Shown one piece after another: positions 26,999-63,443 of a DNA stretch of 64,000 bases. Source of the DNA: a bacterium (GTDB lineage: Bacteria; Patescibacteriota; Dojkabacteria; JAKAPS01); the NCBI GenBank assembly GCA_021806925.1, contig JAKAPS010000005.1, positions 80 to 64,079 on the forward strand, written 5' to 3'. Both the position numbers and the translations under genes were made by a program. The notes beneath the pieces were generated by a model, which saw only the letters and a program-made list of their open reading frames with translations, was not told where the DNA came from and searched no databases. Positions within the stretch are counted from its first letter, which is position 1. Every line of letters begins with the position of its first letter.

Positions 26999-28210
26999 AT
27001 GAATGATATAATAATAATGCAACCATTCAATCAACTATTTCTTAACCAATTTGTTTTAGCAGAAAGTCTTTTGCCTTTTACTAATGAAGAGCTTAGAAAG
27101 TTAGATACAGCCTTAAATAAGTATGAAATATTGTTCTTGAATCCAGATATTGAGAAAAACCTCATTAGTAAAAATGAACTCCTAGCATCTTTTGCTATCT
27201 CTAAGGCAGAGAACTCGAAGCTTACATTACAAGAAGCACAAGACGTGTACAGTTTTATCGTCAATAATGAAGACTACACATTTATTAGCGAGAAACTTAC
27301 CAAAGTGGGGAAATTAACAAACAAAGATTATGATAAATTAGAGTTTTTTAATATTGCTAAGGTATTTAGGAATATCAACCAAAACCCAATACATATACAG
27401 GATGTAACACCAGAATATATACTGGAGTTACATAAACAACTAACCCAAGGTCTTGATATCTTTAAGGATTACTTATTAGATTTTGACGTATATAAATCTG
27501 GACAGTGGCGTGATAACGATGATATTCGGGTTAATACATACAAACCAGCTCCATATAGTGAAATTGAGAAAGGCGTTGAAGAATTACTTAAGTGGGTAAA
27601 GGACAATATTAATATTACCTCTGTTGGCATATTTCATACCGCTTTGTATGCTCTCCACCCATTTTGTAATGGAAATAAACGAGTATCACGAATACTTGAA
27701 CATATATTTCTTAGAAGTTTAGGAATTAATAATAAGAATTTATATAGTACATCCTATTACTACCATAAGGAGAAAGGGAGATATATTAAATATCTCCTTT
27801 ATTCACTAGAGAAGAGAAATTTAAATCATTTTGTGGGATTTTTCCAAGAAGCATTGGTATTATCAATAATTGGTGTTATTAAAACCAGTTTAGAGGTAAA
27901 ACGATATGAATTTATTAATAACAAAGATCTAGATGAAAATACGAGAATCATTCTCAAGCCATTGATAAAACGGCATGAAATACAGTTTAACAAATTGTAT
28001 AAAGAAGTGGATCGTAAAATGGCACGACAAACATTCACCAATTATTTAGAGAAAGCTACAACAGAGAAAATAGTTACAAGAAGGAATGAAGGGCGTAATG
28101 TGTATTACAGCCTCAATACATCATTCCAAGAAGAGAAAGAGATCCATACATTACTAGAGTTCATAAAACAAAAACTCTCTTTTATTCCTGACGAAATGAA
28201 ATTAGTATAA
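26999..28210 (+). CDS. Fic-family protein with a Doc-type active-site motif (HPFCNGNKRVSR)
   Basis: The Fic motif position reads H-x-F-x-N-G-N-K-R-x-x-R. The N and K substitutions match the Doc (kinase-type) variant rather than the canonical AMPylating HPFx[D/E]GNGRxxR. The 403-aa protein has extra N- and C-terminal domains. Confidence 0.75.
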   Translation: MNDIIIMQPFNQLFLNQFVLAESLLPFTNEELRKLDTALNKYEILFLNPDIEKNLISKNELLASFAISKAENSKLTLQEAQDVYSFIVNNEDYTFISEKLTKVGKLTNKDYDKLEFFNIAKVFRNINQNPIHIQDVTPEYILELHKQLTQGLDIFKDYLLDFDVYKSGQWRDNDDIRVNTYKPAPYSEIEKGVEELLKWVKDNINITSVGIFHTALYALHPFCNGNKRVSRILEHIFLRSLGINNKNLYSTSYYYHKEKGRYIKYLLYSLEKRNLNHFVGFFQEALVLSIIGVIKTSLEVKRYEFINNKDLDENTRIILKPLIKRHEIQFNKLYKEVDRKMARQTFTNYLEKATTEKIVTRRNEGRNVYYSLNTSFQEEKEIHTLLEFIKQKLSFIPDEMKLV

Positions 28211-28620: not shown

Positions 28621-28650
28621 TTGACTCTAAACTAAGACAAGTAGTACAAT
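28621..28650 (+). promoter_or_regulatory. sigma70-like promoter (TTGACT-18 nt-TACAAT) upstream of the amidoligase-like gene
   Basis: TTGACT at 28621-28626 and TACAAT at 28645-28650. Confidence 0.35.
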
Positions 28651-28799
28651 GCTATCCATGGCATCCCATAACGTAGAGAAATGTGGATCATCGTTTGATG
28701 CTCTAACTTGTACATTATCTAAAGAGATAATTGAAGCAATTAAAAAAAATATGTTTTAATGTATGTGGTATATTAACCAGCGAATTCCAATCGGGTCGT

Positions 28800-29756
28800 A
28801 TGGAAATAAAGCCTAAAATTGGATGCGAGTTAGAATTTAGATTTATTCCACCAGATGAAGATTATTCTTTAGAGCATAAAAGAAATGTAGATGCATTTAT
28901 TGAATCAGTACGTAAAGATCCAAAACTCCATAAGATTCTACAAACACCTGATGATAAATATGGTATTGATACTGGATTATCAATGATTGGTCAAATCTCA
29001 GCAGAATTTAGATTAAACCCTTTTATATTGGATGAATATATTAATGAAATAGAATTCTTTATTGAATATATAGTAGAAAAATGTAATGAATACCATATAA
29101 TCCCTATTGTAATAGCAAATCATCAACATATATCAATTACTGACATAAATGGTTTATCGAATGTTATGAATAATATTAATGATCTGAATGCAATAATGGT
29201 GGGCATTTTAGATGCGTATCATAGACTTTTTCCATTAACAAGGCTTCCTACAGAAAAAGGAGTTGCACAATATAATTTTGGATTGAAACAAAACGGCTAT
29301 CCCGATAGTGCTATGACACCTTCAGGGTATCCCTGTATGTTTAACCCGAACCCAATAAGGATTGAAACAAGACTAAACAATTCAGAATATATGTTTGACC
29401 CATGGACTACTCTGTTCGTTATATTACTAGGAGTATATAGAGGATTATTGCTATCTAATAATCCTGAGTTAATTGATAAAGATTATCCATTAGATGTTGG
29501 TTATCTTCCACTTGGTAAGGAGTTCATGTATAATTGTTCTCCAGATAACAATTATATCTTTGCTATACAGCATCTAGTAAATGATGAAATCGTTGGACAA
29601 TTTTTAAGTCAAGGTGTTGTTGCTATGCTTCGCCTTATAGCAGGTCTATATAATGATATTTCAAAAGGAAAAATTGGTAAAGAGGATGCATTTAAGTTAG
29701 TTAGAAAATGTAAAAAAGCTTTAGAAAAAAGTAACCGAAAAAGAAGAAATACATAA
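28800..29756 (+). CDS. GCS2-like carboxylate-amine ligase / glutamine-synthetase-fold amidoligase (putative)
   Basis: IGCELEFRF (compare YbdK GvElEf), HQHISI (compare HvHvgv) and IRIETRL (compare lEvRvcD) resemble glutamate-cysteine ligase family 2. The ORF-track start at 28731 may be upstream of the real start. Confidence 0.45.
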   Translation: MEIKPKIGCELEFRFIPPDEDYSLEHKRNVDAFIESVRKDPKLHKILQTPDDKYGIDTGLSMIGQISAEFRLNPFILDEYINEIEFFIEYIVEKCNEYHIIPIVIANHQHISITDINGLSNVMNNINDLNAIMVGILDAYHRLFPLTRLPTEKGVAQYNFGLKQNGYPDSAMTPSGYPCMFNPNPIRIETRLNNSEYMFDPWTTLFVILLGVYRGLLLSNNPELIDKDYPLDVGYLPLGKEFMYNCSPDNNYIFAIQHLVNDEIVGQFLSQGVVAMLRLIAGLYNDISKGKIGKEDAFKLVRKCKKALEKSNRKRRNT

Positions 29757-29797
29757 TTGATTTACATTACATCGCATTTAATATATATTATATTTGT

Positions 29798-31312
29798 ATG
29801 TTTAGAAGAATTCTTGTTACCTTTCTTATTGGAGTGTTTGCTTTTTCTGTAGTAAGTATTTCAATAGGTATACTTACAAATAAATACAATATCGCAAATG
29901 CAAATGTAAATCATTACTATTTCTCAATGGGTAATTTCACAAGTCAATCACCTGTAATGGATTTTAACTATGGAAGTAGTTTGCAACCATCAGTACTTTA
30001 TGTAGGAAATACGTATACTTTAAGTGAAACATTCACTATTAATAATCTATACCAAATAGATTTATATAACAAACATGATATATTAGGGTTGCAAGCAAAT
30101 AAAATACTTGAATCAGGTGGAATAAATTTGCAGAGTGGAAATGCAGGAATAACATTAGGAGCTTTAGATAGTAACAGACAAAGTGGAAACGATAATCAAG
30201 AAGCTGTAGCAAGTGACGGAACAACAGTTATAGGGAGTGGAAAATACTTCAATCAATATTTATGCGGAGATAGCGAATATAGTGTGATTCCATATGATTC
30301 TAGTCAAATAGGGAAAACATATACAATTACATGTAATTTCACACCTAAAACAACAGGATACTTTCAAATTGATGCAGTTGATTATGCATTTCAACATTAT
30401 CAACAAAATCAAGGATTATCATGTTCAGATGGTTATTGTGGAGCTCAGTATGCAGTATTTTTAAGAGTAGTTAACAAGTCTCCAACACCAACACCTACTC
30501 CTACACCGACTCCAACTCAAACTCCACCACCTGAATTTGCAACTACATTAAATGGAAATGTATTTTCACAGAATGGTTACGTAAACACAACTAATACATC
30601 AGTTCCTTTCTCAACATATATTCTTAGTGAGGAATCTAGTTCTGGAAATACTAATAGCGTAAAAAGCCTGTATAACTGGGATTTTGATAACTATATATCA
30701 GGATACAATAGTGTTGATAAAACCCAATATATAAAATATGGATATTCATATTTTAAAAATGAGTTGTGCCAAACAAATACATGTACAACACAAACTACAA
30801 ATACAATAACAAATTCAAGTCAATTTGTAACTGGTGTCAATTTGTATAACAATGGGTTAAACATTGATGGAACAAATGGTGATCTTCCTATCAATGGTAT
30901 ATTAATTGTTAACGGTGATGTTAATATAACAACAGATGGATATAACAAAACATTCCTTAATAGCAATGGAAACTTATTGATCATTTCAAATGGTAATATT
31001 AATATAAATCCACCACAAAACGAATGTACTAACTGCTCGAATAATGGTTATAGTTACCTAAATGCAGGGCTAATATCAGATAAATCAATAAATTTTAATT
31101 CAAGTATAGGAAATAACAATAACACATTACCTTTAATAGATCAGGGGATTGTTGTTGGATACACAAATGTTAATTTCTATTATTCATATCTATATAAATT
31201 AAATAATTTGACTATACCAAAAGTTGATATAGAATATAACCCGAATTTGATACTTTTAGTTAGTCAATATTTTCCAACAGTAGACCAGGTATCAATTACG
31301 TATAGTCTATGA
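29798..31312 (+). CDS. secreted/surface protein with a (PT)n linker and a C-terminal domain shared with the downstream giant protein
   Basis: N-terminal signal anchor and a PTPTPTPTPTPTQTPPPE linker. The C-terminal ~250 aa are homologous to the C-terminus of ORF 31309-34602 (LYNWDF/LYNWQF, YGYSYF/YGYSYL and GNININP segments). Confidence 0.5.
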   Translation: MFRRILVTFLIGVFAFSVVSISIGILTNKYNIANANVNHYYFSMGNFTSQSPVMDFNYGSSLQPSVLYVGNTYTLSETFTINNLYQIDLYNKHDILGLQANKILESGGINLQSGNAGITLGALDSNRQSGNDNQEAVASDGTTVIGSGKYFNQYLCGDSEYSVIPYDSSQIGKTYTITCNFTPKTTGYFQIDAVDYAFQHYQQNQGLSCSDGYCGAQYAVFLRVVNKSPTPTPTPTPTPTQTPPPEFATTLNGNVFSQNGYVNTTNTSVPFSTYILSEESSSGNTNSVKSLYNWDFDNYISGYNSVDKTQYIKYGYSYFKNELCQTNTCTTQTTNTITNSSQFVTGVNLYNNGLNIDGTNGDLPINGILIVNGDVNITTDGYNKTFLNSNGNLLIISNGNININPPQNECTNCSNNGYSYLNAGLISDKSINFNSSIGNNNNTLPLIDQGIVVGYTNVNFYYSYLYKLNNLTIPKVDIEYNPNLILLVSQYFPTVDQVSITYSL

Positions 31313-34300
31313 AAAGAATCACTTTATTAAAGAAAATATCAATTCCGATTTGTTTTTCTTTAATATTCATATTCTTCTATGTATTTGTAATAAAAGGAAA
31401 TGTACTGTTAAATGCAACAGTATTTTCTCAAACTAGCTTGCCATATTGTGGCTCTCTTGCAAACCCATCGAGTCAATATGTTTGTAACAGTGGAAGCAGC
31501 TATCACTTATGCTATGATTTCAATGATAGCCAGTACAGTGCTTATGGTATATATGTATCAAATCAATGTACAGGCAGTGGGCAATGTGCTCCTCCTCCTG
31601 CCGGATTTTACCAAAATACATGGGCAGGAGGACAATGTTGTGCAAAGGTTGTGAATTCACCACTTGGTAAGACATGTGCTACAATTGATTATTACGATCA
31701 ATCTGATGACTTACCAATCAATTGCGGATTCATTGATTCTGGTGCTACTACAAGATGCACAGATTATAATAGCCTAGCAATATACCCCCACTTGGCCTGG
31801 GCATCATATTGTTCAGGGGACACTAACGCAACATGCACAGGATCCAATTCAAGCCAGTGTTCAAGCGAAACAGGTTATGGACTTTACAGCAGCGGAGTAA
31901 GCAGTTATTGCTGGAATGCATACTATTATTACACAAACTATCAAGAGTATTATTATCAAAGAATCCCTACAATAACAGGGGGAAGCATATATAACAATAG
32001 TACAAATCAATATGTAGCAAGTGGTTCTACACAGATGTTTAACAATAGGATAACTGATTCAGTAAGTTTAAATACTTGGAGTGGCGTAACATCTACATCA
32101 TGGAAAGAAGTTATAACTGACAATATTGATAATAAATCAAGCACATATTATGGTAGCGGTGGGTCATTCACTTACACATTAAATTCAGGTAGTATATCAA
32201 ATCCAACACCAAATGAAACTTTTCACTATTATGTTACATTTACTGAATACTATAACGGAGGCAGTCAATCATGGTCATCTAGTTTAAGTGCAGTAAACCC
32301 TCCTCCAAAACCAGTAATAAGCTCAATATCAATATATGATAACAGTTTAAGCAGGGGACTAAATTCAGGTGATACAGGATTATACTCTGACAGCATAACA
32401 GCATCCCCTTCTATTAATACTACATACATAACTAGGGACTGGAAAGAGAATGTAACTGCAAGCGGAGGAGGTAATACTACCATTGACCTTGGTTCATCTT
32501 CAAACATAACCTTTAATTTAAATGCCATAGTAGGAACACCATCTCCAGGAGAGAAATACACCTTTAATATAACGCTTAATGTCAATAATACAAGTGGAAG
32601 TGCATCAAGCTCATTTACTTTATACATGTATATCCCAGTAAATTTCTCTTTTTCATGTCAATCTAATGCCGAAAGCTTACTTGCTGCATCTAATCCATTA
32701 ATTGAGTATGATAATAGCCCGACTAATCCTTGTAGCAATTGGAGTGTATTAGCAAATAACTATATTAAGACAAGCGGTAGCAACTATAACTCATCATTTG
32801 AGGCATCTAATAGAGATAGTATAGTTTATTTCCCTGGAACTGATAATGTTGCAATGCTAACTGGAGCAGGATCAAATAATATATGGATAGTAAAGTGGCA
32901 ATTTGAAAATTCTTCACTTCAAAATATTGTAAACCCTAGTACAGTGCAAGTTGCAATTCTTGTAAATAACACAACAACGCCAACTGATCTCACAATAAGC
33001 TATGCTTCTAACCAGCCTAATAGTCTATTTGTGTCTCAGTATTCACAAAATTCAAGTATATTAAACATACCTTGGAATGTAATTAGTGCAGATGAAAATA
33101 GCTTTTTAAATAACGTACCCTTTTCACCAATTAATGCTAATAACTATATATTCTACAGGTACAATAAAAGCCTATATGCAAATGGTATTATAGCTGATGG
33201 AAATAACTTGTATTGGGGAATGATTGATAGAACTACCAATACAAACTATATATATGAATTCAATATTCAGAATGGTTCTATAACACAAAAATGGGACTTG
33301 GGTTCAACAGGTACAAGTCAAACAGGTGTTCTTCAAAATGGAAAAAGAGTCAGATTTTTGAATTCATGGTGGTCTGTTGATGGATTATCAGTTTCGCCTG
33401 ATGGGAAGTATGTATTTGCCGTATCACAACAGGGGATTTTAATATGGGTAATTCAAAATGCACAGGGAACAAGCCCTTCAATGCTTGGATACGCTCCAGT
33501 ATTAACTGGAACTACTGACCTTTCTAAAGAAAGCGGACTTCAAGGGCTTGATGGTATTGCAGTTGACCCAAATGGTCAGATATATTTTGTTCTGTATAAC
33601 CAAGGAATATATAGTACATCTGAAACTCAATTGATAAATGCAGCAAGTGAGAATGGTAATTCATTTTTACAATATGGTACAAATATATACATATACGCAA
33701 ATGCAACTGTAAATGCACAAGCATTTATTACAGGAAATTTTGATGATATTGCTCCATTATCATTTCCAGGAGCTCCAACAATAACCCCTGCAAAGTGGAT
33801 GAATACAATGGGGGCAAATGTTTTCTCCCAATATGGATACGGTTCTCTCCAAAATCCATTAAATCTGAATTTCAGTGAGTATGGATTATTCGATAATACA
33901 AACAAAGTAAATAAATATGCTTCACTATATAACTGGCAATTCTCAAGTTATACATCTATGGATAATTCAATTAACGGAAGTATAACACCAGTGTACGGAT
34001 ACAGTTATCTTATGGATGATATTTGTAACAATAGTGGAAAAAATAAATGTAATACTGTATCAACTTCTTCACTTCCATCTAACACAATTAATGGAAGTGT
34101 AGCTTTAAATGGAGTTAACATATTAAATGGAAATATTACAATTGACGCAAGTAGCGGTGGAATACAAACTACAGGAATACTTTTTATTAACGGTAACCTT
34201 ACAATAACTCCAGATAGTAGTAACACATTTTTCAGCAATTCACAAGATAGGCTTCTTGTAATTGTATCTGGAAATATTAATATAAATCCTAATTCATATT

Positions 34301-34602
34301 ATTGCTCAGGAACAAATTGTAACTCCAACCTTTATTATCAATACATCAATTTAGGATTAGTATCCAATGGAAGTATTACTGTAAACCCATATGTTAATAA
34401 TCTATCATTTCCAAACTATATGGAACCTCTTGTTATCTCTGGAGTAGGTATATTTTATGGAGGAATAACACAGAAACTTGATATTGGAAATCTTGATTTA
34501 TATGACCCTGCCGTAAAGTTTAATTATGACCCAACTTTGATACTTCAAAATGAAAATTTCTTTACAGATTCTCAACTTGTCAGCCAACAATTAGGGCTAT
34601 AG
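31309..34602 (+). CDS. large (1097 aa) secreted Cys-rich surface protein with a beta-propeller-like middle and shared C-terminal domain
   Basis: Signal anchor, then ~170 aa with more than 25 Cys, S/T/N-rich repeats, and YVFAVSQQG / LDGIAVDPNGQIYFV propeller-like blades. The C-terminal domain is paralogous to that of the upstream gene. Start overlaps the upstream stop (ATGA). Confidence 0.5.
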   Translation: MKRITLLKKISIPICFSLIFIFFYVFVIKGNVLLNATVFSQTSLPYCGSLANPSSQYVCNSGSSYHLCYDFNDSQYSAYGIYVSNQCTGSGQCAPPPAGFYQNTWAGGQCCAKVVNSPLGKTCATIDYYDQSDDLPINCGFIDSGATTRCTDYNSLAIYPHLAWASYCSGDTNATCTGSNSSQCSSETGYGLYSSGVSSYCWNAYYYYTNYQEYYYQRIPTITGGSIYNNSTNQYVASGSTQMFNNRITDSVSLNTWSGVTSTSWKEVITDNIDNKSSTYYGSGGSFTYTLNSGSISNPTPNETFHYYVTFTEYYNGGSQSWSSSLSAVNPPPKPVISSISIYDNSLSRGLNSGDTGLYSDSITASPSINTTYITRDWKENVTASGGGNTTIDLGSSSNITFNLNAIVGTPSPGEKYTFNITLNVNNTSGSASSSFTLYMYIPVNFSFSCQSNAESLLAASNPLIEYDNSPTNPCSNWSVLANNYIKTSGSNYNSSFEASNRDSIVYFPGTDNVAMLTGAGSNNIWIVKWQFENSSLQNIVNPSTVQVAILVNNTTTPTDLTISYASNQPNSLFVSQYSQNSSILNIPWNVISADENSFLNNVPFSPINANNYIFYRYNKSLYANGIIADGNNLYWGMIDRTTNTNYIYEFNIQNGSITQKWDLGSTGTSQTGVLQNGKRVRFLNSWWSVDGLSVSPDGKYVFAVSQQGILIWVIQNAQGTSPSMLGYAPVLTGTTDLSKESGLQGLDGIAVDPNGQIYFVLYNQGIYSTSETQLINAASENGNSFLQYGTNIYIYANATVNAQAFITGNFDDIAPLSFPGAPTITPAKWMNTMGANVFSQYGYGSLQNPLNLNFSEYGLFDNTNKVNKYASLYNWQFSSYTSMDNSINGSITPVYGYSYLMDDICNNSGKNKCNTVSTSSLPSNTINGSVALNGVNILNGNITIDASSGGIQTTGILFINGNLTITPDSSNTFFSNSQDRLLVIVSGNININPNSYYCSGTNCNSNLYYQYINLGLVSNGSITVNPYVNNLSFPNYMEPLVISGVGIFYGGITQKLDIGNLDLYDPAVKFNYDPTLILQNENFFTDSQLVSQQLGL

Positions 34603-37789: not shown

Positions 37790-38824
37790 TTATAGTTCCT
37801 TAGTTTTCATAGCAAGCCCAAGTGCTATACTAAATGTGTTCTGTATACTTTTGTTTTTATCTTCATGTGTGTCTTTCACATTTACCCATGGATTACCAAT
37901 TTGAACCTCTATACCAAAAATTTGAGTCAGGTAAACAACTAATCCGGGTAGATTACACCCACCACCTGTAACAATAACCCTGGATGGAATACTATCAGGT
38001 GCATTTATTTTAAAGTATTCTATAGCTCTTGTAACGTCTGTACATATTGAATCAACAACCAATTTTATTGATCGATATATTCTACCATCAAGCTGACTCT
38101 CATCTAACCCATAATTCTTTTTATACTCTTCAGCCTGTGCATACTCAAGACCAAAATCCTGCATTACTGCTTTAGTCATTGAATTAGATCCAGTTGATAT
38201 TGACTGTGAATATATCAATTCAGAATTACGAATAACTGCAAGTGTTGAACTATCAAATCCTATATCTAATATAACGCTTGTTGTTTTATCTTCTGGTATC
38301 AAAAATGGTCTTGATAAACTTGCTGCTGCTGTCTCAATTGCGACAATCTGCAATCCACAATCCTTAAACAACCTTATATAGTAATTAACAAGTGTCTTTG
38401 ATACTGCAACAATAAATATATTCCACATTCTAACTCCATCAGATGAATACGACTCACCAACTTTTCTATAACTCAAATTGACCTCATCGAGAGGAATTGG
38501 AATATATTGCTTAGCTTGCCAATGTATTGCTTCTGCAATTTGAGAATCCTCCATATATGGAATTTGAATAAGTCTTGATGATACAAAATTCTCAGGTATT
38601 GATACACACACTTTTTTAAATTTTGTTTGAAGCTCCTTAACTCCAGATTTAATAGCTCCTATCAACTCCATTCTATCCTGTTCATTTTCACTTCCAATAG
38701 AATTTTTTGGAGTAGTTACAAAAGATTCATTAACAGAGAAAAAATTCTTTGAATCAGTTCTAAGTTGTACAGATTTAACTGTACTATGCCCTAAATCTAT
38801 ACCAAAATAATCTATTATTTTCAT
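37790..38824 (-). CDS. pilM: type IV pilus assembly protein PilM (actin-like ATPase fold)
   Basis: N-terminal FGIDLGHSTVKSVQL and an overall PilM/FtsA-like fold. Confidence 0.8.
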   Translation of the reverse strand: MKIIDYFGIDLGHSTVKSVQLRTDSKNFFSVNESFVTTPKNSIGSENEQDRMELIGAIKSGVKELQTKFKKVCVSIPENFVSSRLIQIPYMEDSQIAEAIHWQAKQYIPIPLDEVNLSYRKVGESYSSDGVRMWNIFIVAVSKTLVNYYIRLFKDCGLQIVAIETAAASLSRPFLIPEDKTTSVILDIGFDSSTLAVIRNSELIYSQSISTGSNSMTKAVMQDFGLEYAQAEEYKKNYGLDESQLDGRIYRSIKLVVDSICTDVTRAIEYFKINAPDSIPSRVIVTGGGCNLPGLVVYLTQIFGIEVQIGNPWVNVKDTHEDKNKSIQNTFSIALGLAMKTKEL

Positions 38825-38846
38825 ATGTTTATATATACATAATATA

Positions 38847-39479
38847 TCAGATATTAAAATTCTTAAGCAATAAATTACTGCTAAGTGAAAAATAGTTATA
38901 GACTAAATCTACACTATCTACCTGATTACTTAGCATATCTCCATTCTCATTTACACTTAAAAGAACATTAATATCCTGATTAGTTTCCATATCATTTAAA
39001 AGAGACATTAATTGACTACCTGTACAATTCAATTTCAAATCAACCTCAGACACATTAGCATTCTGATTTAAATTACTCAAAATGTTGCTAATATTAGTTA
39101 CTGCAGAAAGATTTAAATTAACACTCTGTACAACACAGTCGTTTTTCTGAGCCAATTGTTCAATACTATTTAATAAAAGACCATTATCAAGATAATCAGG
39201 TAATGTATTATTAAGATTTGATAATTGGCTTGTTAATTTATTCTGTGCAGCAGTTGAACTATTCGATTTGTAAAGTGCTAGATTATTTACATCAGTTTGT
39301 ATCTCCTCTTTATATTGTATATCAGAGTTATAGTTATTAATTATTCCGTAGAATAGGGGAATATATGCAAAAATAAAAAGGATTATAATTACAATAGATC
39401 CAAAAACAGGAATAATATATCCCCTTACAAAATGAAGTATCAAATCAAAAGTATCTTTATTTAAATCAATGTCCTTCAT
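38847..39479 (-). CDS. pilO: type IV pilus assembly protein PilO-like
   Basis: Single N-terminal TM followed by a coiled coil and an S/N-rich periplasmic domain. Adjacent to pilN. Confidence 0.5.
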   Translation of the reverse strand: MKDIDLNKDTFDLILHFVRGYIIPVFGSIVIIILFIFAYIPLFYGIINNYNSDIQYKEEIQTDVNNLALYKSNSSTAAQNKLTSQLSNLNNTLPDYLDNGLLLNSIEQLAQKNDCVVQSVNLNLSAVTNISNILSNLNQNANVSEVDLKLNCTGSQLMSLLNDMETNQDINVLLSVNENGDMLSNQVDSVDLVYNYFSLSSNLLLKNFNI

Positions 39480-40002
39480 ATATTCCTGATATTGAATATC
39501 CAGCTTGGTTAGAATTTTGAGAATATACTAGAGAACTTACAGTTAATCCAGATATATTCGTATTTTTATATAACGTATCAATATATATTGATAGTGTAGT
39601 TATATTTGGACTGTATATATACATGCTGAAATTTCTACCATTAAGATCTACATTCTGCAAATATGCACCTGTTGGAAGTGATTGGTTAAAGAAATTGAAA
39701 AAATTAATTGGATTAAATGCGTTATTTTGTATGTTTGATATAAAAGAGGATTTCTCTTTTGCAACATACATACCGCCAGCTATAACACTGTAGTTTGACA
39801 ATTCAACTTTCAAATTACTTATTACATTTTTATCGCTATTAACAATTACAGAATATATTGAATCTACAACTAAGAGGACACCAGCAACGGCAACAAACGC
39901 AAGAAGTATAAGAGCTGAATAAAAATCAACTTTGAACTTTTTTACCTCTTTTATTACTTGTTCTCTAGTTGGAACTGGAACAAGGTTAATTGTATTTGCC
40001 AT
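39466..40002 (-). CDS. pilN: type IV pilus assembly protein PilN
   Basis: INLVP motif (compare INLLP) followed by a TM helix, typical of the PilN N-terminus. Confidence 0.7.
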   Translation of the reverse strand: MANTINLVPVPTREQVIKEVKKFKVDFYSALILLAFVAVAGVLLVVDSIYSVIVNSDKNVISNLKVELSNYSVIAGGMYVAKEKSSFISNIQNNAFNPINFFNFFNQSLPTGAYLQNVDLNGRNFSMYIYSPNITTLSIYIDTLYKNTNISGLTVSSLVYSQNSNQAGYSISGIYEGH

Positions 40003-40033
40003 TTTTACTTTCTATATATCAATATATTTAATA

Positions 40034-40435
40034 TTATTCCTCAACAAGTAAACTTCTAACTTCATAAAGAACCTGCTCAGGTGTTAAATCTGATTTAAGT
40101 AAATATCCTCTTACACTTTTTAATTTATATGCCTTTTTAACTTCAAACTCATTAGAGTTATTTGTAATTATCATAATTGCAATATCACCATATTTTTCGA
40201 TATCACCTTCTAGAGTTTCAATAACATCAAATCCGTCCATTCCTCTAAGGCTCAACATAAGATCAAGCATTAAAAAATCTGGTTTGAATTCTGATGCTAT
40301 TAAAACACCATTCTCCCCGTTAGATGCACTCCTGACATCATATCCTGCACTCTGCATAATAGTAACATACATCTCCCTTATATCTTTCTCATCTTCTATT
40401 ATCAGACATTTTTTATAATCAGATAATTGTTTCAT
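40034..40435 (-). CDS. CheY-like response regulator, receiver domain only (PilH/PilG-like)
   Basis: D-D...D54 (LMLDLMLSLRGMDGFDV)...K receiver signature. No output domain. Embedded in the pilus cluster. Confidence 0.8.
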   Translation of the reverse strand: MKQLSDYKKCLIIEDEKDIREMYVTIMQSAGYDVRSASNGENGVLIASEFKPDFLMLDLMLSLRGMDGFDVIETLEGDIEKYGDIAIMIITNNSNEFEVKKAYKLKSVRGYLLKSDLTPEQVLYEVRSLLVEE

Positions 40436-40489
40436 AATTTATTATCTAGCACATTATACTTTACCCACAAATTAGTAATTCTCATCTTA

Positions 40490-41302
40490 CTAAAATGATA
40501 CAGGTGAACTTGACCCAACTCCACCTGAATATAGGACGTAATCAAATATACCTGGCAAATTGCCAGATGAAGTTAACAAACTGTTTAATACTATTCTTGA
40601 GCCATTATAGTAACCTGAAGCATTTACGTTATACCCTTGAGTAACACCGTTATTAGGAATAATTATCACATTAGATGAATTTCCGGAATAATTTATCAAT
40701 GTTGCTCTTACAATGTCCCAATTGTTGTTACTAGACGATTTCGAAAATGTAACAACATAATCATTGTTATAATTTGAATTTTGAGATAACCCATAAGGAG
40801 CTGCACAAGATGAATCTTCAGTTGTTGGAACAGAATAATTTCCATTACTATTAATTCCGGTAGGGTAATACAAGCACATATAGTTTGTTCCATCATTATT
40901 TATGAAATTGAGTTCAAGAAGTGATGTATTATCATACCAGCCAAATATAACGTTAGTAGATTTTGATATATCAGCTGTAACAGTTTCGTCTTTTTGCAAA
41001 ACTGCATTTATTGATGTTGAGGGTGTAATTGTGTAGACACAATTACTACTCGTCGTTCCACTACAAGGCTGAGATATACCACTACTTGGAATACTTGAAG
41101 AACTATTCTGTATCAATGCCTTGGCACCAGATAATGCACTTTGTGCATAGAATTGTGCCTGTTGCATATTTGTATTTTGAATTGTTGAAACTGTATTTAG
41201 TGATATATTTTGACTAAGTGTAACAACAAGGAAAAATACAATAAATATAACAACAATAACTAAAACTAGCGCTTGTCCTTTATTTTTTTTAAGTACCATC
41301 AT
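40490..41302 (-). CDS. PilX-like minor pilin / pilus assembly protein
   Basis: N-terminal KGQALVLVIVVIFIV hydrophobic segment typical of the PilX N-terminal domain. S/T/N-rich. Confidence 0.5.
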   Translation of the reverse strand: MMVLKKNKGQALVLVIVVIFIVFFLVVTLSQNISLNTVSTIQNTNMQQAQFYAQSALSGAKALIQNSSSSIPSSGISQPCSGTTSSNCVYTITPSTSINAVLQKDETVTADISKSTNVIFGWYDNTSLLELNFINNDGTNYMCLYYPTGINSNGNYSVPTTEDSSCAAPYGLSQNSNYNNDYVVTFSKSSSNNNWDIVRATLINYSGNSSNVIIIPNNGVTQGYNVNASGYYNGSRIVLNSLLTSSGNLPGIFDYVLYSGGVGSSSPVSF

Positions 41303-41880
41303 CTGCTATATTGTACTATAGAACTTAGTCCCATGTGAATATTTTTATCATTTCCCGTTAAAAGTGTAATTAACTGACCTGATTGTAATTGAAAATTCAC
41401 TGAACTTATATTAACATTACTCTGATTCAAAAGTGTAGTTAAACCACTTCCATTTCCGTTAACTACAACCGTTTCCTCAATATATCCATTGTTATTAATA
41501 ACCACATATTGAAATGTAATTGTAGAAGTTGTCATTGTTGAATTTCCTGATGTACTAGATAAACTGGATGATGTAAATTCAACACATGTATAATTTGTAC
41601 TACAGCTTATTGGGTTATATGCATATTGAATAGACTTATCGATTGTTGTTTCTATTGTTGACAAACTACTCCTCAAGTAATTTCTCTCATTTATATCTGT
41701 TATTGTAGTAACAATATTCAAAAGAATAGAAGTTAACAGAATTGCAAGAAAACCGAATATAGCCATGGAGATAACAACCTCTATTAATGTAAATCCAGAA
41801 CTATTCTTATTTCCAGCTTTCTGTTTAAATCTAATATCAATATATTTCCAAATATATCTTTTTATATTTTTCACTTCCAT
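41299..41880 (-). CDS. type IV pseudopilin (minor pilin)
   Basis: Class III signal sequence ...SGFTLIEVVISMAIFGFL. Translationally coupled to its neighbours. Confidence 0.65.
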   Translation of the reverse strand: MEVKNIKRYIWKYIDIRFKQKAGNKNSSGFTLIEVVISMAIFGFLAILLTSILLNIVTTITDINERNYLRSSLSTIETTIDKSIQYAYNPISCSTNYTCVEFTSSSLSSTSGNSTMTTSTITFQYVVINNNGYIEETVVVNGNGSGLTTLLNQSNVNISSVNFQLQSGQLITLLTGNDKNIHMGLSSIVQYSR

Positions 41881-41947
41881 TCTTAATTATATTTAATATA
41901 TGTGTATTTCATTTTTACTATTACCAAACTTCCTCTTATAAATACTT

Positions 41948-42589
41948 CTATAAATAATATATCTCATTGTATGTTATTACAACAGGAAGAGAACTTGAAT
42001 TAAATTCGTTATATAGGACTTTTGATGTTAGGGAGATAAAGTTTCCTGATGAATTTGGAACAATTGACAATATATTCTTAAAATTTGTTAGGTTATAGTT
42101 ACCTGTTGTATTCATTGTCATACTGCATTGGTAGTTACCTTGACCACTTCCAGTTGTATTTGTTGCAATATATACATTTTCAGGTGATACTGAATAATAA
42201 ATATCAAATGATTGATTGTATGTAGGATTATAGCAATTTGATATTAGGTTAAGTAAACCAGGGGCTGAGAATCCATTCTGACAAATGTAATAGTAATATG
42301 TTACTGGATTGCTATAAAGTGTATTCAAGCACATCGGGTTATATGATTTAATCATATCGAACTTTTCGATTTGAGATACGTTTATATAGTTTGCATTGTC
42401 TCTATTTTCATTTTCATATTCGATTTTCAAATCTCTGGTTGATAGATTAAGGAGTGCTATTAAACTCAATCCAGTTATTGCTATAACTACAATTATTTCT
42501 ATTAAAGATAAGCCATCTCTACTCTTAAACTTATCCTTAAATATTTTAAATATATTAGTCCGAATTCTTTTATATATATTTTTATTCAT
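41948..42589 (-). CDS. type IV pseudopilin (minor pilin)
   Basis: Prepilin-like N-terminus ...DGLSLIEIIVVIAITGL. Confidence 0.6.
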   Translation of the reverse strand: MNKNIYKRIRTNIFKIFKDKFKSRDGLSLIEIIVVIAITGLSLIALLNLSTRDLKIEYENENRDNANYINVSQIEKFDMIKSYNPMCLNTLYSNPVTYYYYICQNGFSAPGLLNLISNCYNPTYNQSFDIYYSVSPENVYIATNTTGSGQGNYQCSMTMNTTGNYNLTNFKNILSIVPNSSGNFISLTSKVLYNEFNSSSLPVVITYNEIYYL

Positions 42590-43299
42590 TGTATTAGATT
42601 AGGGTTGTAAAGTGGGGTAGAGTTATATTTTCCGCCTGAATAACTTGCAACTGTTACACTAGTTCCAGTTCCATGGTAAGCAACATTTAGACTTAATGAA
42701 CCTAAATGGCTTGGCTGAATATATACACCTGTACTTCCGAAGACAAAACCAGTCCCTGTTAAGTTCTCATATGCTATATAGTAATTATTGCTAAAACCTC
42801 CAACAGGTAATTCCTTCCATGATATAACTAGATTAGTGTCACGAGAAAAGTTTCCCTGACTATATAACTGGTATTCAACACCATTCACTTTGTCTATAAA
42901 TCCAGAACATGTTGAAAGCAATGGTATATCAAGAGTAAATCCAGAAGTATTATCTAATACGTATTGCAGATTACCTGAATATGAGAAATTGAGACTAGTT
43001 GGTGATCCATCATTCGCATCAATCAGCTTATATATACAATATCCGTTCTTTTGCTGATTTAATGAGAATAAATATCCATAAGTAATAGGGGAGTTAATGT
43101 TTTCAGTTACTGAATTGACTGCTAAATTCTCAGTAGAATTAAGTAATGATACTATACTATCAGAAACAGATTTTGAGTATTGATAATTCTTAGTGCTGTT
43201 TATTGCACTTATACTTATACCTAAAAGTATTGCTGTTATTGCTAGAACAAGCAGAATTTCAATTAAACTGAATCCCTTGTTTTTATAGCTTCCAATCAT
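42586..43299 (-). CDS. type IV pseudopilin (minor pilin)
   Basis: Prepilin N-terminus ...KGFSLIEILLVLAITAIL. Confidence 0.65.
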   Translation of the reverse strand: MIGSYKNKGFSLIEILLVLAITAILLGISISAINSTKNYQYSKSVSDSIVSLLNSTENLAVNSVTENINSPITYGYLFSLNQQKNGYCIYKLIDANDGSPTSLNFSYSGNLQYVLDNTSGFTLDIPLLSTCSGFIDKVNGVEYQLYSQGNFSRDTNLVISWKELPVGGFSNNYYIAYENLTGTGFVFGSTGVYIQPSHLGSLSLNVAYHGTGTSVTVASYSGGKYNSTPLYNPNLIQ

Positions 43300-44210
43300 A
43301 CACCTAAATAATAGTGTAAAATTAGAAATATTGGAAGTGAAAGGAAATAGCTGTAAAAAATTAAAGATGATAAAAACCCGATACCCATAAAAGGAGCAAA
43401 GAATATTGGATCTTTTAATTTTTTTCTTCTTAACAAAAGAACATATAAACCATATAACCCGCCGCTTATAAAAGATATATAAACAAATACAAGTGATAGA
43501 TCAAATCCAAGAATAAAGGAGAGAGGGAATGACAAGTAAACATCGCCTAAACCTATTCCTTTTCTATTTGTTAATATATATATAGCAAGGAATAATATTA
43601 GTGTCAGAATTCCAGATAACAGGTGATACATAAATATGTTCAAATACTGATTTGAAAAATAGCTGAATAACATATTAGATGACTGTTGCAAAAATTCTGG
43701 AATAAACATTGTTACCAGTCCCAATGCTGACAATAGTGCTACCATTGTGTCGCTTATGAGATAATTCTTAATATCGTAATATGAAACATAGAATATTATT
43801 GAAGCAAAAATGAAAAACAGTATTAAATTTATATAGAAAATTGATATATTAAATCCATTCTGTGGTAGTAGATACATGCTGTACAAAAAATCAATTGTAA
43901 AAATTGCACCCAAAACCAACTCAACAAAGAAATACTCTACACTTATTTTATTTTTACAATATCTACACCTACCATTTAAATATATGTATGACAACACTGG
44001 AATTAAATCAAAAGGGCCTAATTTATGTTTGCACGTTTCACAATATGACCTACCAAGTATAGCTTTAGAAAATGTCTTTTTATTCTCAAATGTATTTATT
44101 GACACTTCTTTTTCCCTGTAAACAAGTACAGCAATAAAACTGGCTAAACTCCCTCCAATCATAAAAACTAATAAGGCTGATATAAAAAAGAGTATATATA
44201 CTTCAATCAT
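43296..44210 (-). CDS. pilD: prepilin peptidase (A24 family)
   Basis: Multi-TM protein with a cytoplasmic Zn-binding C-x2-C...C-x2-C motif (CETCKH...CRYCKNKI) and A24 catalytic Asp regions. Confidence 0.8.
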   Translation of the reverse strand: MIEVYILFFISALLVFMIGGSLASFIAVLVYREKEVSINTFENKKTFSKAILGRSYCETCKHKLGPFDLIPVLSYIYLNGRCRYCKNKISVEYFFVELVLGAIFTIDFLYSMYLLPQNGFNISIFYINLILFFIFASIIFYVSYYDIKNYLISDTMVALLSALGLVTMFIPEFLQQSSNMLFSYFSNQYLNIFMYHLLSGILTLILFLAIYILTNRKGIGLGDVYLSFPLSFILGFDLSLVFVYISFISGGLYGLYVLLLRRKKLKDPIFFAPFMGIGFLSSLIFYSYFLSLPIFLILHYYLGV

Positions 44211-44792
44211 TTAATTAAAACATTGGCTTAGAGATCCATTAATAGGATTATCAATCATTGATAGGTTATATTGACTTGGAATTGAGAAATATGTATATGA
44301 ATAAGACCCTCCAAGGAAATTACCATTCCCAGTTATATAGAATGGATTACCTAGAGTATCTGTACACTTACCACCAGATGGTGTTTTCAATACTAATATA
44401 TATGCAGATTCCCCGCTACTGGTGCAATATCCAAATGAACTGTATACAGACTGATTCGGATTTCCCAATACATTTTTAAATGTATTTTCATCAAGTGGAG
44501 GTAATACAGAAGTATTCATGCTATTAACCAGATCACTTATACTACCTAGCTTATCAAATCCATCAGTAACAGAACCACAGTCGACTTTTGGATATGTGTT
44601 TGTTATTGAATCGTACTCATTTAAATACGTCTCAATTGAAGTAAGGGTCGCCTTATTTTTCTGATCCTGTGAATACCTCTCCGCACCAAGCAAACCAACA
44701 GTAGCAAGAGCTATAAGAACAGATATGAGGAAGAAAACTAATAAAAGCTCTATTAATGTAAATCCTCTTCTTCTGTAATTAGTTGGCAACAT
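44211..44792 (-). CDS. type IV pilin / pseudopilin
   Basis: ...RRRGFTLIELLLVFFLISVL prepilin signal. Start placed at the Met closest to the leader; the longer ORF-track start would overlap pilA. Confidence 0.6.
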   Translation of the reverse strand: MLPTNYRRRGFTLIELLLVFFLISVLIALATVGLLGAERYSQDQKNKATLTSIETYLNEYDSITNTYPKVDCGSVTDGFDKLGSISDLVNSMNTSVLPPLDENTFKNVLGNPNQSVYSSFGYCTSSGESAYILVLKTPSGGKCTDTLGNPFYITGNGNFLGGSYSYTYFSIPSQYNLSMIDNPINGSLSQCFN

Positions 44793-45249
44793 AATATGAT
44801 GCAGTGCTTCCTTCCAGGAATACTCCCATCTGATAACCATTTGAACCTCCTGTAGTGTCATAGCAAAGATTTAAATCATTTGCATTAAATGATACTGGTC
44901 TTGTGGAACCACAACTCACTATACTGTTATAACTCAATCCATCTAATCCTACACATGTGCCATTTACTGTTATACCATCATTGTTACTATTTCCTTGAGT
45001 TGAACAATTATTTGTTGTTGAAGATATGAAACTACTAAAATTACTTACAGAAGGATAACTCCCTGATTGAGACTGATAGGTTTGAAGCATTGCATTCAAC
45101 TGAGCTACTATATCTTTTCTTGATGTATCCCTCTGAGCACTTCTTGCAGCATTGAAGCCGACTATTGCAAGTGCTATTAATATACCAATAATAGCCATTA
45201 CAACCAGGAGTTCTATAAGAGTAAATCCGTTATATTTTCTATTTTCCAT
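44779..45249 (-). CDS. pilA: type IVa major pilin PilA-like
   Basis: MENRKYNGFTLIELLVVMAIIGILIAL is a classic short leader ending in G followed by F(+1)TLIEL. First gene of the minus-strand pilus operon. Confidence 0.7.
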   Translation of the reverse strand: MENRKYNGFTLIELLVVMAIIGILIALAIVGFNAARSAQRDTSRKDIVAQLNAMLQTYQSQSGSYPSVSNFSSFISSTTNNCSTQGNSNNDGITVNGTCVGLDGLSYNSIVSCGSTRPVSFNANDLNLCYDTTGGSNGYQMGVFLEGSTASYYVAN

Positions 45250-47911: not shown

Positions 47912-51142
<3,231 letters not shown>

Positions 51143-53751: not shown

Positions 53752-55395
53752 ATGAGTCATGAGATTATTACTACAAGACCTGAAATAAATACTACAGAAG
53801 AAATAGAAGCATTAAATGTTCTTATAAGATTGCTTGGAAAGGATGAAGAAAAAGATGAATTATACAAAAGATATAAAGATAGTGATAAAAAAAATCGTAA
53901 TAAAGCTATATTTGACACTTTGAACATTACAAAACCTAGTGATAGGAAATTCATTAGAGAAGTACTAGAAGCTACTGATCGTATAGAGCTCGCACAAGAA
54001 GGCAAAGATACCTCATATTTGATAGAAGAATATACAATATTAGAACAATTGCTAAGGAGAAATATAGCGATAATAAAGAGATATAATCCTACTATTAGTG
54101 ATATAGATGATGTTAATAAAGCCATCATCGATACACTATTAAATGATCCATCACTAAGTGGACTAAATGTTAATACAATAATCGAGGAATACTCTAAGTT
54201 TTACGCAAAGAAGAGGATACGTACAATTTTGGGCACAGTTATGGGAATATCTGGAATAGCATTTACAGGTGTAGGAATAGGGACAGGTTTATTTATTCCT
54301 TTTATTGCAAGTGTGGTTGTTTCATCTATAGCGATAGGATTGGTAGGATATGTTATTAAACATGATTATAATGAAAATCGTACTGCTATAGAAAAGAAAG
54401 AAGCAAAACCAATAAAACGTATATTTAGTAAATTTGCTCCTTTTTATCCAATGACAGGGATAAATGAGGCATTAAAAAAATTCACTAATCCTGATAGTAT
54501 AGAATCAACTGATAGAGAAATGATGTTTAATAATTACAATGAACTAAAAGAATTTGCTGAAAAATATGAAGGTGGTAATTTTGCTAATGATTTCGTTAAT
54601 AAATCCTTAAAATGTTTATCTGAGGAAAAAGTAATAAAAGGATTAGAGGCTCATTTAAATCAAGTTCATGACACAATGGAAGAGCTGCTGAAGGCAATTC
54701 CAGAAAGTATGATGGACAATAGACACAAAGAACTAATGAAGTTTGCAGCTAAAATTCATGACCTATTTAAAGGATTAACAACTGCTAAAGGACAAATAAC
54801 TGCGGACCACTACATACTATTAGCTAAATTTATTGAAGATAACTTTACGAATAAAGTAGTAGAGATGGAAGCTTTAAGTAATGGTGAAGTTGAATTCCTC
54901 GCTGATGTAATTAAAAATCATGAAAACATACATCATGAAAGTGAATGCCTTAAAGTAGCAATAGATGATACGACATATACAACACCTAACAGTAAAGGAC
55001 TCGCACGCATGTTTATACTTATAGCGGATGTCATTACAAATTCAGTAGTATTCAATGGTGAAAGTAGAAAAATAAAAGTAAGTGAAGAAACACTTTATAG
55101 ATATCTCGATTTGTGTAGCAGGCATATTAACCCTGAAACTAGAAAAATTTTTAGACCAGAATGGGTATCTATAACCGCAATAACCTTAATCAAAATTTTT
55201 GATAAATTAATTGAGAACGGTGTTAGTGTAGATACTAGCTATAGGTCAGACATATTAGATGGTGTAATTAATGTTATGAATAATGATATGAATAATCTAA
55301 ATAACAAATCTGAAGAAAGTAGAGTACAGACTGAACTTGCAAAACTGAAAGCCTTCAAGCAAACAACTGATAATCAATCTAATCAAAATCAATAG
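53752..55395 (+). CDS. hypothetical membrane protein (two central TM helices)
   Basis: 547 aa. Central hydrophobic hairpin ILGTVMGISGIAFTGVGIGTGLFIPFIASVVVSSIAIGLVGYVI. No domain recognised. Confidence 0.35.
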   Translation: MSHEIITTRPEINTTEEIEALNVLIRLLGKDEEKDELYKRYKDSDKKNRNKAIFDTLNITKPSDRKFIREVLEATDRIELAQEGKDTSYLIEEYTILEQLLRRNIAIIKRYNPTISDIDDVNKAIIDTLLNDPSLSGLNVNTIIEEYSKFYAKKRIRTILGTVMGISGIAFTGVGIGTGLFIPFIASVVVSSIAIGLVGYVIKHDYNENRTAIEKKEAKPIKRIFSKFAPFYPMTGINEALKKFTNPDSIESTDREMMFNNYNELKEFAEKYEGGNFANDFVNKSLKCLSEEKVIKGLEAHLNQVHDTMEELLKAIPESMMDNRHKELMKFAAKIHDLFKGLTTAKGQITADHYILLAKFIEDNFTNKVVEMEALSNGEVEFLADVIKNHENIHHESECLKVAIDDTTYTTPNSKGLARMFILIADVITNSVVFNGESRKIKVSEETLYRYLDLCSRHINPETRKIFRPEWVSITAITLIKIFDKLIENGVSVDTSYRSDILDGVINVMNNDMNNLNNKSEESRVQTELAKLKAFKQTTDNQSNQNQ

Positions 55396-62369: not shown

Positions 62370-62399
62370 TTTATTATGTGTTAATATATATTTAGAAAT

Positions 62400-63443
62400 A
62401 TGGATGATTTATTAGATATAGTTATAAAAAGAAATGCATCTGATTTACATTTAGTTGCAACGTATCCGCCGATTATTCGTGTTGACGGCTCTCTTGAATA
62501 CATAAATTCTACAGAATTGACTAAAGAAGTAATCGAATTACAGTTAAAATCCTTACTTAATGAAGAGCAAAAAAAGATACTTGATGAATATAAGGAATTA
62601 GATCTTGTATATGCTCATAAATCTGGAAATAGATTTAGAATAAATATTTTTTATGAAAGGGGAAATCTTTCAGGAGCTTTTAGATTAATTCCTACTTCAA
62701 TAAAATCAGTTGAAGGATTAGGACTTCCATCTATTCTTCATGAATTCACAAGATTGAAGCAAGGATTTATTCTTGTGACAGGACCAACTGGACATGGAAA
62801 AACAACAACAGTTGCATCAATATTGCAGGAAATTAATGATAAGTATCCTAGAAATATAATTACAATTGAAGATCCAATTGAATACATATTTCCGAAATCA
62901 AAGGCATTAGTATCTCAAAGGGAGCTTGGTAGAGACACTTTAAGCTGGGATAATTCTCTAAAGAGTGTTCTAAGAGAAGATCCTGACATTGTTTTTATAG
63001 GTGAGATGCGTGATTTTGATACAATATCAAGTGCAATTACAATTGCAGAAACTGGACACCTTGTATTTGCAACTCTTCACACAAATAGTGCATCTCAAAC
63101 AATTGACAGAATAATTGATGTATTCCCAGAGAATCAACAAAACCAGGTCAGAAGTCAACTAGCAAGTATCATTGAATGTATAATATCTCAAAGGCTTATT
63201 GAGTCAAATAAAGGAGGTAGAGTTGTAGCAAGTGAAGTACTTTTAGCAACACCTGCTGTAAGAAATATTATACGTGAGGGTAAGACTTATCAAATTGATA
63301 ATGTAATTCAAACATCATCAGACCTTGGTATGATTTCACTTGAAAGATCTCTTGTTTCTCTTGTTAAAGAAGGGAAAATCTCTATTGAAAAAGCTCAACA
63401 AGTAGCTAGCAGACCTGATGAAATATTGAGATTGTTTAGATAA
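62400..63443 (+). CDS. pilT: twitching-motility retraction ATPase PilT
   Basis: Walker A GPTGHGKTTT, the EDPIE Walker B and the PilT C-terminal AIRNLIRE-like motif (AVRNIIREGK). Confidence 0.85.
   Translation: MDDLLDIVIKRNASDLHLVATYPPIIRVDGSLEYINSTELTKEVIELQLKSLLNEEQKKILDEYKELDLVYAHKSGNRFRINIFYERGNLSGAFRLIPTSIKSVEGLGLPSILHEFTRLKQGFILVTGPTGHGKTTTVASILQEINDKYPRNIITIEDPIEYIFPKSKALVSQRELGRDTLSWDNSLKSVLREDPDIVFIGEMRDFDTISSAITIAETGHLVFATLHTNSASQTIDRIIDVFPENQQNQVRSQLASIIECIISQRLIESNKGGRVVASEVLLATPAVRNIIREGKTYQIDNVIQTSSDLGMISLERSLVSLVKEGKISIEKAQQVASRPDEILRLFR

Follow-up and report, generated by a model that had tools for sequence, protein, structure and literature searches.

The question raised by this locus is whether three adjacent genes of the same strand form a single protein-modification system, or are neighbours with separate functions. 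The genes, here called A, B and C, are located at positions 28731–34602 of a 64,000-nt stretch of bacterial DNA from contig JAKAPS010000005.1 (hereafter the window, always at its full length). Gene A (28731–29756, +) is an open reading frame (ORF) of 341 residues that begins with TTG; gene B (29798–31312, +) and gene C (31309–34602, +) encode exported proteins of 504 and 1097 residues, respectively. A gap of 41 nt separates A from B, whereas genes B and C overlap through the sequence ATGA, in which the ATG of C begins at 31309 and the TGA of B occupies positions 31310–31312; the three ORFs, the gap and the overlap are as described in a first-pass annotation of the sequence. That annotation also proposed that A is a GCS2-like amidoligase and that, together with B and C, it constitutes a dedicated modification or adhesion system. 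The reading that we favour, with a probability of approx. 0.6, is that the locus consists of two units, independent of each other and adjacent by chance: A would be a cytoplasmic ligase of the small-molecule type, with the glutamine synthetase (GS) fold, and B and C would be exported surface proteins specific to the lineage, encoded by translationally coupled genes. The adjacency of A to B and C is best treated as coincidental.

The model of A obtained with AlphaFold2 (AF2), using as input the family alignment described below, has a predicted local distance difference test score (pLDDT) of 81.5 and a predicted template-modelling score of 0.84, and contains six core strands (E26–39, E79–83, E89–99, E124–138, E185–188 and E210–216). 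When the PDB was searched with this model using Foldseek, 135 matches were obtained at E ≤ 1e-3, and the best 50 of these were all GS, GmaS, 1-naphthylamine GS or other GS homologues, with a probability of 1.00, E values from 3e-7 to 2e-5, TM scores of 0.43–0.60 and alignments of 325–455 columns; the sequence identity between A and these structural neighbours is only 10–15%. The GS fold anticipated for A is therefore borne out by structure prediction at the level of the superfamily.

The superfamily of GS-fold carboxylate-amine/ammonia ligases is characterised by a saddle-shaped catalytic domain with six core strands, by the motifs Ex[EH] in strand 1, [HD]x[NH] in strand 4 and Ex[RK]x2D in strand 6, and by two arginine fingers, which are supplied by strand 5 and by the loop before it (PMC2588565). 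The motifs of A are placed on strands 1, 3, 4 and 6 of the model, and they include the three that had been pointed out earlier, GCELE (residues 31–35), HQH (131–133) and IRIETR (209–214). The first of them, G31-C-E33-L-E35 (28821–28835, +), is found in core strand 1 (E26–39) and has the form GhExE, which is the metal/ATP motif of this strand in the superfamily (PMC2588565); two of the 30 rows of the family alignment are fragments, and of the other 28, which span this motif, 27 have the glycine and all have each glutamate. H131-Q-H133 (29121–29129, +), in strand E124–138, fits the strand-4 motif, with H131 in 29 and H133 in all 30 family members. The third motif, I-R210-I-E212-T-R214 (29355–29372, +), occupies core strand 6 (E210–216) and is aligned by HMMER with the ‘tRiEfR’ of GS; E212 and R214 are present in the 30 members and R210 in 27. 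In addition, E92 and R94 form an ExR motif in strand E89–99 that is conserved in the 29 rows covering this position, and R165, present in 24 of the 30 members, is aligned with the arginine of the GS motif ‘YKR’; R165 and R210, the latter just before E212, are the candidates for the two arginine fingers. In summary, GxExE, ExR, SQHxHxS, YxR, LPEE, RxExR and SEYxFDP are invariant or nearly so across the family. At two positions the agreement with the definition is less clear: in strand 2 (E79–83) no conserved acidic residue was identified from the alignment and the strand limits of the model, and the position of the strand-6 aspartate is occupied by serine or asparagine throughout the family (N217 in A), giving ExRxN[SN] instead of ExRxxD. 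An invariant aspartate, D223 of the SEYxFDP motif, follows six residues after N217. Judged from the model, A is a GS-fold carboxylate-amine ligase at the superfamily level, since the overall fold with its six core strands, the GhExE of strand 1 and the [HD]x[NH] of strand 4 are all present, and most of the published definition is matched (PMC2588565).

The family to which A belongs is small. Searches with A against Pfam and NCBIfam gave no match, with nothing at E ≤ 1 for GCS2, Amidoligase_2 or Gln-synt_C; likewise, there was no match in PADLOC or PHROGs, and a word-index homology search returned A itself as the sole entry. An exhaustive HMMER search against 1.84 billion representative proteins yielded 31 proteins with E ≤ 1e-3, and for 23 of these the value was 1e-10 or lower; one protein of this list (P0024) was dropped as a spurious match driven by repeats. 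The resulting alignment has 30 members, A and 29 relatives, and the family, which has no name, amounts to approx. 30 clusters among the representatives searched. In a collection of 15 billion proteins, A and C each form an unnamed singleton cluster. The connection with GS can also be perceived in the sequences: Gln-synt_C shows a weak match in 6 of the 30 members (best E = 0.013, below the gathering score), and the family profile, compared with the PDB sequences, retrieved an archaeal GS with E = 0.0036, among three chains in all at E ≤ 10. In this alignment the YxR of the family falls on the ‘YKR’ of GS and RxExR falls on ‘RiEfR’, and the C-terminal helical region is aligned as well, while the N-terminal half of the family alone gave no GS match in the PDB. 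A represents a family that is new and rare, although its superfamily is well known.

A comparison with the type I GS catalytic domain and with GS-like ligases such as GmaS, 1-naphthylamine GS and the PuuA-type enzymes (PDB 5dm3, 8tfc, 7cql and 8x6z) reveals the same catalytic fold, with the strand-1 GxExE, the HxH, the arginine of YxR and the RxExR strand of A aligned to GS motifs. In contrast, besides the low identity, the different strand-6 motif and a score below the Gln-synt_C threshold of Pfam, A does not have the N-terminal β-grasp domain (Gln-synt_N), and for this reason it does not qualify as a canonical GS. Strand 1 of A is preceded by no more than about 25 residues; its relatives have a lead of approx. 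60 residues, which is not a β-grasp either. A lacks the first 48 or so positions of the family profile, including the conserved lead ‘KYxPxNIxPxxFMRPPTE’; this lead, together with ‘NPNY’, ‘LPEE’ and ‘SEYxFDP’, is among the conserved features specific to the family. The missing portion was sought in the 520-nt spacer upstream of A, where stop codons occur in every frame. The true start of A could be the TTG at 28731 or an ATG at 28800, which corresponds to M24. No hydrophobic segment was detected in A.

The proposal that A is GCS2-like deserves separate consideration. Like GCS2/YbdK (PF04107; PDB 1r8g), A is a single-domain GS-fold ligase in the size range of approx. 340–400 residues, with no β-grasp domain and with the GhExE form of strand 1 (PMC2588565). 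Nevertheless, no match to GCS2 or Amidoligase_2 was found at E ≤ 1 in any of the 30 family members, and no GCS2 chain appeared among the three PDB chains retrieved by the profile or among the best 50 Foldseek matches. Given the lack of a match at the level of either the HMM or the PDB sequences, A is not demonstrably a member of GCS2/YbdK, and the label is not supported. A related possibility, by analogy with these enzymes, is that A makes a low-molecular-weight thiol as a ligase of the γ-glutamyl-cysteine type, that is, functionally similar to GCS2 without being a member of it. The absent β-grasp and the strand-1 motif that A has in common with GCS2 would agree with this, and so would some of the genomic contexts of its relatives. 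In one of them (L006, 3153–4768) a co-directional gene for a Bcp-type peroxiredoxin ends 24 nt before the start of the homologue, in another (L023) a gene of the glyoxalase fold adjoins the homologue, and in a third (L025) two tandem paralogues, P0018 and P0013 (5394–6566 and 6576–7703), are encoded by the same strand 10 nt apart, an arrangement consistent with the dimeric or heterodimeric habit of GCS-type ligases (PMC2588565). The peroxiredoxin and glyoxalase-fold neighbours hint weakly at a link to thiols or redox functions; however, a redox-related neighbour occurs in only two of about ten contexts, no thiol-related genes are found next to A in the window, the GCS2 HMM is matched by no member, and all of the best 50 structural neighbours are GS or γ-glutamyl-amine ligases. 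On balance, a thiol-forming role for A seems unlikely.

By analogy with characterised members of the superfamily, A would bind ATP and Mg2+ or Mn2+ through the GhExE of strand 1, E92 of strand 3 and the HxH of strand 4, and would phosphorylate the carboxylate of its substrate, which in these enzymes is most often the γ-carboxylate of glutamate; the attack of an amine on the acyl-phosphate would then produce an amide. Because A is devoid of the β-grasp domain, through which each GS subunit contributes to the ammonium site of its neighbour, this amine is more likely to be an amino acid or other organic amine than free ammonia. Judging by its fold, its motifs and the stand-alone contexts of the family, A most likely has ATP-dependent ligase activity, with an acyl-phosphate as the intermediate of amide formation, and this follows the reasoning that has been applied to ligases without partners, since GS-fold ligases that have no conserved small-protein partner were assigned to the synthesis of small peptides or metabolites (PMC2588565). 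The relatives of A stand alone in varied neighbourhoods, which argues for a small molecule as its most likely substrate instead of a protein.

Another alternative is the one put forward in the first-pass annotation, in which A is a peptide or protein amidoligase whose targets for modification or tagging are B and C, or else a small peptide, and the three genes form a system dedicated to modification and adhesion, used for attachment to a host or partner cell. There is a precedent for protein modification by this fold in the Pup ligase PafA/Dop and in the GS-like amidoligases described by Iyer, Aravind and co-workers; PafA is the one proven protein-tagging ligase of the GS fold (PMC2588565). 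A belongs to the same superfamily as these enzymes and is predicted to use the same acyl-phosphate chemistry. Their systems, however, are defined by strictly conserved neighbourhoods, which contain either Pup and the proteasome or amidotransferase, transglutaminase-type and cyclotransferase partners (PMC2588565), and such partners are absent near A and near its relatives in the ten contexts compared. Moreover, no HMM match to PafA-type families was found among the 30 family members, and none of them matches Amidoligase_2 (PF12224).

Ten further genomic contexts in which members of the A family occur were compared, and they bear directly on this alternative. The neighbourhoods are heterogeneous, with an ion channel, an ATPase and a rhomboid protease gene (the latter with the tandem ligase copy) among the further neighbours. 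No homologue of B, of C or of their shared C-terminal module was detected in these contexts by tblastn, phmmer or hmmsearch, in a comparison that comprised all of them except the P0007 DNA, and no ATP-grasp protein, amidotransferase, transglutaminase-like peptidase or conserved small ORF was found in the ten. A scan of contigs with a reduced alignment of the family had given two loci only. In two of the loci (L002/L005, 98–4000, and L029, 2208–7182) the ligase homologue is located beside genes for a membrane-anchored protein with PEGA and TolB-like domains, MreB and the glycosyltransferase WecG. The PEGA-MreB-WecG block is the same in both, and the ligase gene is inverted between them; in L002 it is convergent with the PEGA gene, so that a common transcript is excluded at that locus. 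The block is absent from the window, with all three of its genes.

For a modification system it could be argued that A and B are encoded by the same strand, that only 41 nt without a terminator-like site separate them, that an exported PEGA protein accompanies the ligase in L002 and L029, and that two large uncharacterised genes precede the ligase homologue on the P0007 contig. The last two points, together with the first, also weigh against the separation of A from B and C that we favour: the short gap makes co-transcription of A and B possible, and the PEGA neighbours and the large P0007 genes, which are known as unannotated entries only, leave room for a loose association between ligases of this family and surface proteins. 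On the other side, no gene similar to B or C was found near ten other family members and the usual partners are missing; furthermore, A is predicted to be cytoplasmic and ATP-dependent, whereas B and C carry export signals, and in L002 the orientation of the genes is incompatible with a common transcript. Beyond adjacency the dedicated system receives no support, and we consider it decidedly unlikely. The action of a cytoplasmic ATP-dependent enzyme of the GS fold on exported proteins is conceivable, but no precedent is known apart from pupylation. A particular version of this idea is that A represents an undescribed clade of GS-fold ligases without β-grasp, found largely in Patescibacteria-like genomes, that was recruited in this lineage to modify B and C before their export, for example by γ-glutamyl addition or amidation. 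Modification of proteins by ligases of the GS fold would then have two independent cases, of which pupylation is the first; this version is highly improbable.

A small ORF also enters into this discussion. It has 36 residues (33 from its second ATG), two of them cysteines, and lies just upstream of A at 28649/28658–28759 (+), overlapping the annotated TTG start; it ends 40 nt before the alternative ATG start of A. It could be counted in favour of a tagging system. It is nevertheless one of ten small ORFs in the AT-rich 520-nt spacer upstream of A, a number at chance level, and it overlaps a promoter-like −10 hexamer; for these two reasons it is probably a chance ORF. The spacer itself has no Rfam match and its RNA structure is not unusual (z = +0.9).

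The spacer between A and B (29757–29797, +) contains a promoter-like element, TTTACA-17-TATATT, at 29761–29789, which ends 8 nt before the ATG of B, and no Shine-Dalgarno sequence is visible in it. The element is a match to the consensus alone, and such sites are not commoner in this region than in shuffled sequences; its location suggests that B and C may have a transcript of their own.

Proteins B and C have a comparable architecture. B begins with a single hydrophobic segment (residues 1–29, signal or anchor), which is followed by a β-rich N-terminal domain, a proline/threonine (P/T) linker that includes the (PT)6 repeat noticed earlier (residues 228–245, 30479–30532, +) and a C-terminal module (residues 246–504, 30533–31309, +). 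C also has a single N-terminal hydrophobic segment (residues 4–39), and then a Cys-rich region (residues 47–201, 31447–31911, +), β regions rich in N, S and T, a possible propeller (residues ~601–818, 33109–33762, +), a short P-rich linker and the second copy of the module (residues 829–1097, 33793–34599, +). Both proteins had been described as signal-anchored; the single N-terminal hydrophobic segment is indeed present in each, and it may be either an anchor or a cleaved signal peptide. AxA-like sites can be recognised by eye in both (ANA|N in B and LNA|T in C). The cysteine content of C had been overestimated: instead of more than 25 residues in the N-terminal region, there are 21 in the whole protein, 14 of which are in residues 47–201.

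The two copies of the C-terminal module, of approx. 260–270 residues, are 36% identical over 286 residues (E = 1e-33, BLASTP with compositional adjustment) and 40% identical in a MAFFT alignment. The Smith-Waterman score between them is 391, versus 68.5 ± 10 for 300 composition-matched shuffles (z = 32), and the scores with other N/S/T-rich parts of C, 53–63, are at the level of the background. From these comparisons of the sequences, the likeness claimed for the two C-termini is real homology, and low complexity as an explanation was ruled out. Four cysteines of the module are invariant between B and C (324, 329, 410 and 413 in B), and a P/T-rich linker immediately precedes it in both proteins. 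Apart from this, the tetrapeptide VFSQ occurs three times in the approx. 29,000 residues of the window ORFs, always in B or C: at residues 255–259 of B (30560–30574) and at residues 38–42 (31420–31434) and 838–842 (33820–33834) of C. It marks the start of the module in both proteins and a spot right after the signal sequence of C. Residues 27–53 of B also resemble residues 791–817 of C (48% identity, E = 0.025). Taken together, the VFSQ pattern and this second similarity suggest that the tail of C may derive from a fused B-like gene.

No relatives of B and C were found outside this locus. Neither protein has a match in Pfam, NCBIfam, PADLOC or PHROGs; the word-index protein search gave nothing for B or for an alignment of the module, probably because the lists of candidates were filled up by low-complexity words; when metagenome and viral contigs were scanned with DNA patterns of the module, no relatives came up; tblastn of C against phage records had no match; and neither C nor the module retrieved any PDB sequence. 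There are no other proteins similar to B or C among the ORFs of the window. It should be weighed against our reading of B and C as lineage-specific that their orphan status was established by the word-index search, the DNA-pattern scans, the PDB and the four family collections, the exhaustive HMMER search having covered A only.

The folds that had been suggested for these proteins were examined as well. The ‘propeller-like blades’ of C come down to Pfam matches below threshold in residues ~600–818, of which the best is SGL (E = 3.5e-4, 20.7 bits versus a cutoff of 26.3), accompanied by three further propeller families with E values of 0.02–0.12. For the module, the ‘β-helix-like’ description had behind it a match of the C copy to Cthe_2159, a β-helix carbohydrate-binding family, with E = 0.021 and 14.5 bits, under the cutoff of 25.8. 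The AF2 model of B, made from a two-sequence alignment, has a pLDDT of 38, and only residues ~315–440 reach values of 55–79, with short, regularly spaced strands; Foldseek retrieved nothing below E = 1 with it, the non-significant matches being to β-helix proteins. Neither description was established, although both the β-helix for the module and the propeller for C are plausible. The module resembles Cthe_2159 and the ice-binding-like β-helices of the DUF3494 type in the regularly spaced strands of the one semi-confident part of the model and in that its weak matches are all to β-helices, and it resembles β-helix surface domains in being part of an extracellular protein and in having pairs of cysteines; the difference is that no significant match was obtained, and membership is not claimed.

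Considering their architecture, B and C are most likely displayed on the cell surface, with a P/T stalk preceding the shared module, which would contain disulfides. They would constitute a translationally coupled pair that arose in part by duplication, in which different N-terminal heads are joined to a common module. The module, with its four conserved cysteines, may function as an anchoring or docking domain similar to a β-solenoid, and the variable heads may be the adhesive or binding parts, that of C being composed of the Cys-rich domain and a probable propeller. The poor overall quality of the B model (pLDDT 38) counts against this picture to the extent that the solenoid form and the anchoring role of the module are deduced from the architecture. 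Lineage-specific surface proteins of this type are common in genomes such as this one. The G+C content of approx. 30% across the window, its housekeeping genes, its two clusters of type IV pilus (T4P) genes and its numerous ORFs without annotation are consistent with a small-genome bacterium similar to those of the candidate phyla radiation (CPR)/Patescibacteria.

The presence of the T4P genes raises a further possibility, namely that B and C are T4P accessories, for instance a tip adhesin of the PilY1 kind or proteins associated with the pilus, and that A is unrelated to them. The first T4P cluster (37790–45249, −) comprises pilM, two unannotated genes, a response regulator gene (40034–40435) and genes for a protein with a weak PilX_N match, five pseudopilins with the N_methyl motif and the PilD peptidase. 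The second (60594–63443, +), approx. 15 kb from the first, encodes ATPases similar to PilB and PilT. Two clusters in the window and the possible propeller of C, which would recall that of PilY1, speak for such a role. Nonetheless, the order of the genes around the locus is pheT, the PBP1A gene (−), recG, rsmD, a Fic gene, A, B, C, rpmF, nusB, rnc, rpsP and a gene for a KH protein, and the first cluster, with pilM at 37790, begins only after the last five of these, on the opposite strand and 3 kb from B and C. In addition, neither B nor C has an N_methyl/prepilin motif or a match to PilX_N or PilY1-type families of Pfam, and both are unlike every ORF of the T4P clusters. The link to the pilus genes that had been contemplated was consequently not sustained, and a function of B and C as pilus accessories appears very unlikely.

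Returning to A and the B/C pair as independent units, the finding is mainly a gain in annotation: a fold and a probable chemistry can be proposed for a family that has no name, and an interpretation that made too much of the adjacency of the genes is corrected; no new system is revealed. If the A family proves to be active, it would represent a small uncharacterised branch of the GS-fold carboxylate-amine ligases in organisms of extremely reduced metabolism, where any ATP-dependent ligase that has been retained is likely to supply a product the cell needs, be it a thiol, a precursor of the envelope or an amide used in signalling. B and C, for their part, would illustrate how lineage-specific surface proteins are built by joining different heads to a common C-terminal module.

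Directly upstream of A is the Fic-domain gene (26999–28210, +), which matches the PADLOC model ‘SoFic’ over almost its full length (E = 1e-26); this is a single-gene model for anti-phage defence. The gene is bordered by unusually long spacers of 468 and 520 nt, and the region from the Fic gene to C, flanked by rsmD and rpmF, may be an accessory segment of variable content. When RsmD was used as a synteny anchor in metagenomes, one short fragment had 52% identity and the remaining relatives had no more than 41% over most of the protein; close relatives were absent from this search and no common gene order was found.

Other features of the window are of a different nature. Two large ORFs, of 547 residues (53752–55395, +) and 745 residues (58255–60492, +), have no Pfam match and do not resemble B or C; the second is located just upstream of pilB. 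A transposase of the IS66 family (5478–6920, −; DDE_Tnp_IS66, E = 7.6e-21) is encoded within a region of locally higher G+C content, at 4–8 kb. Finally, the gene for GyrB (47915–51142, +; 1075 residues) carries an intein, detected as Pfam Intein_splicing at residues 507–934, between the Toprim and the C-terminal domains.

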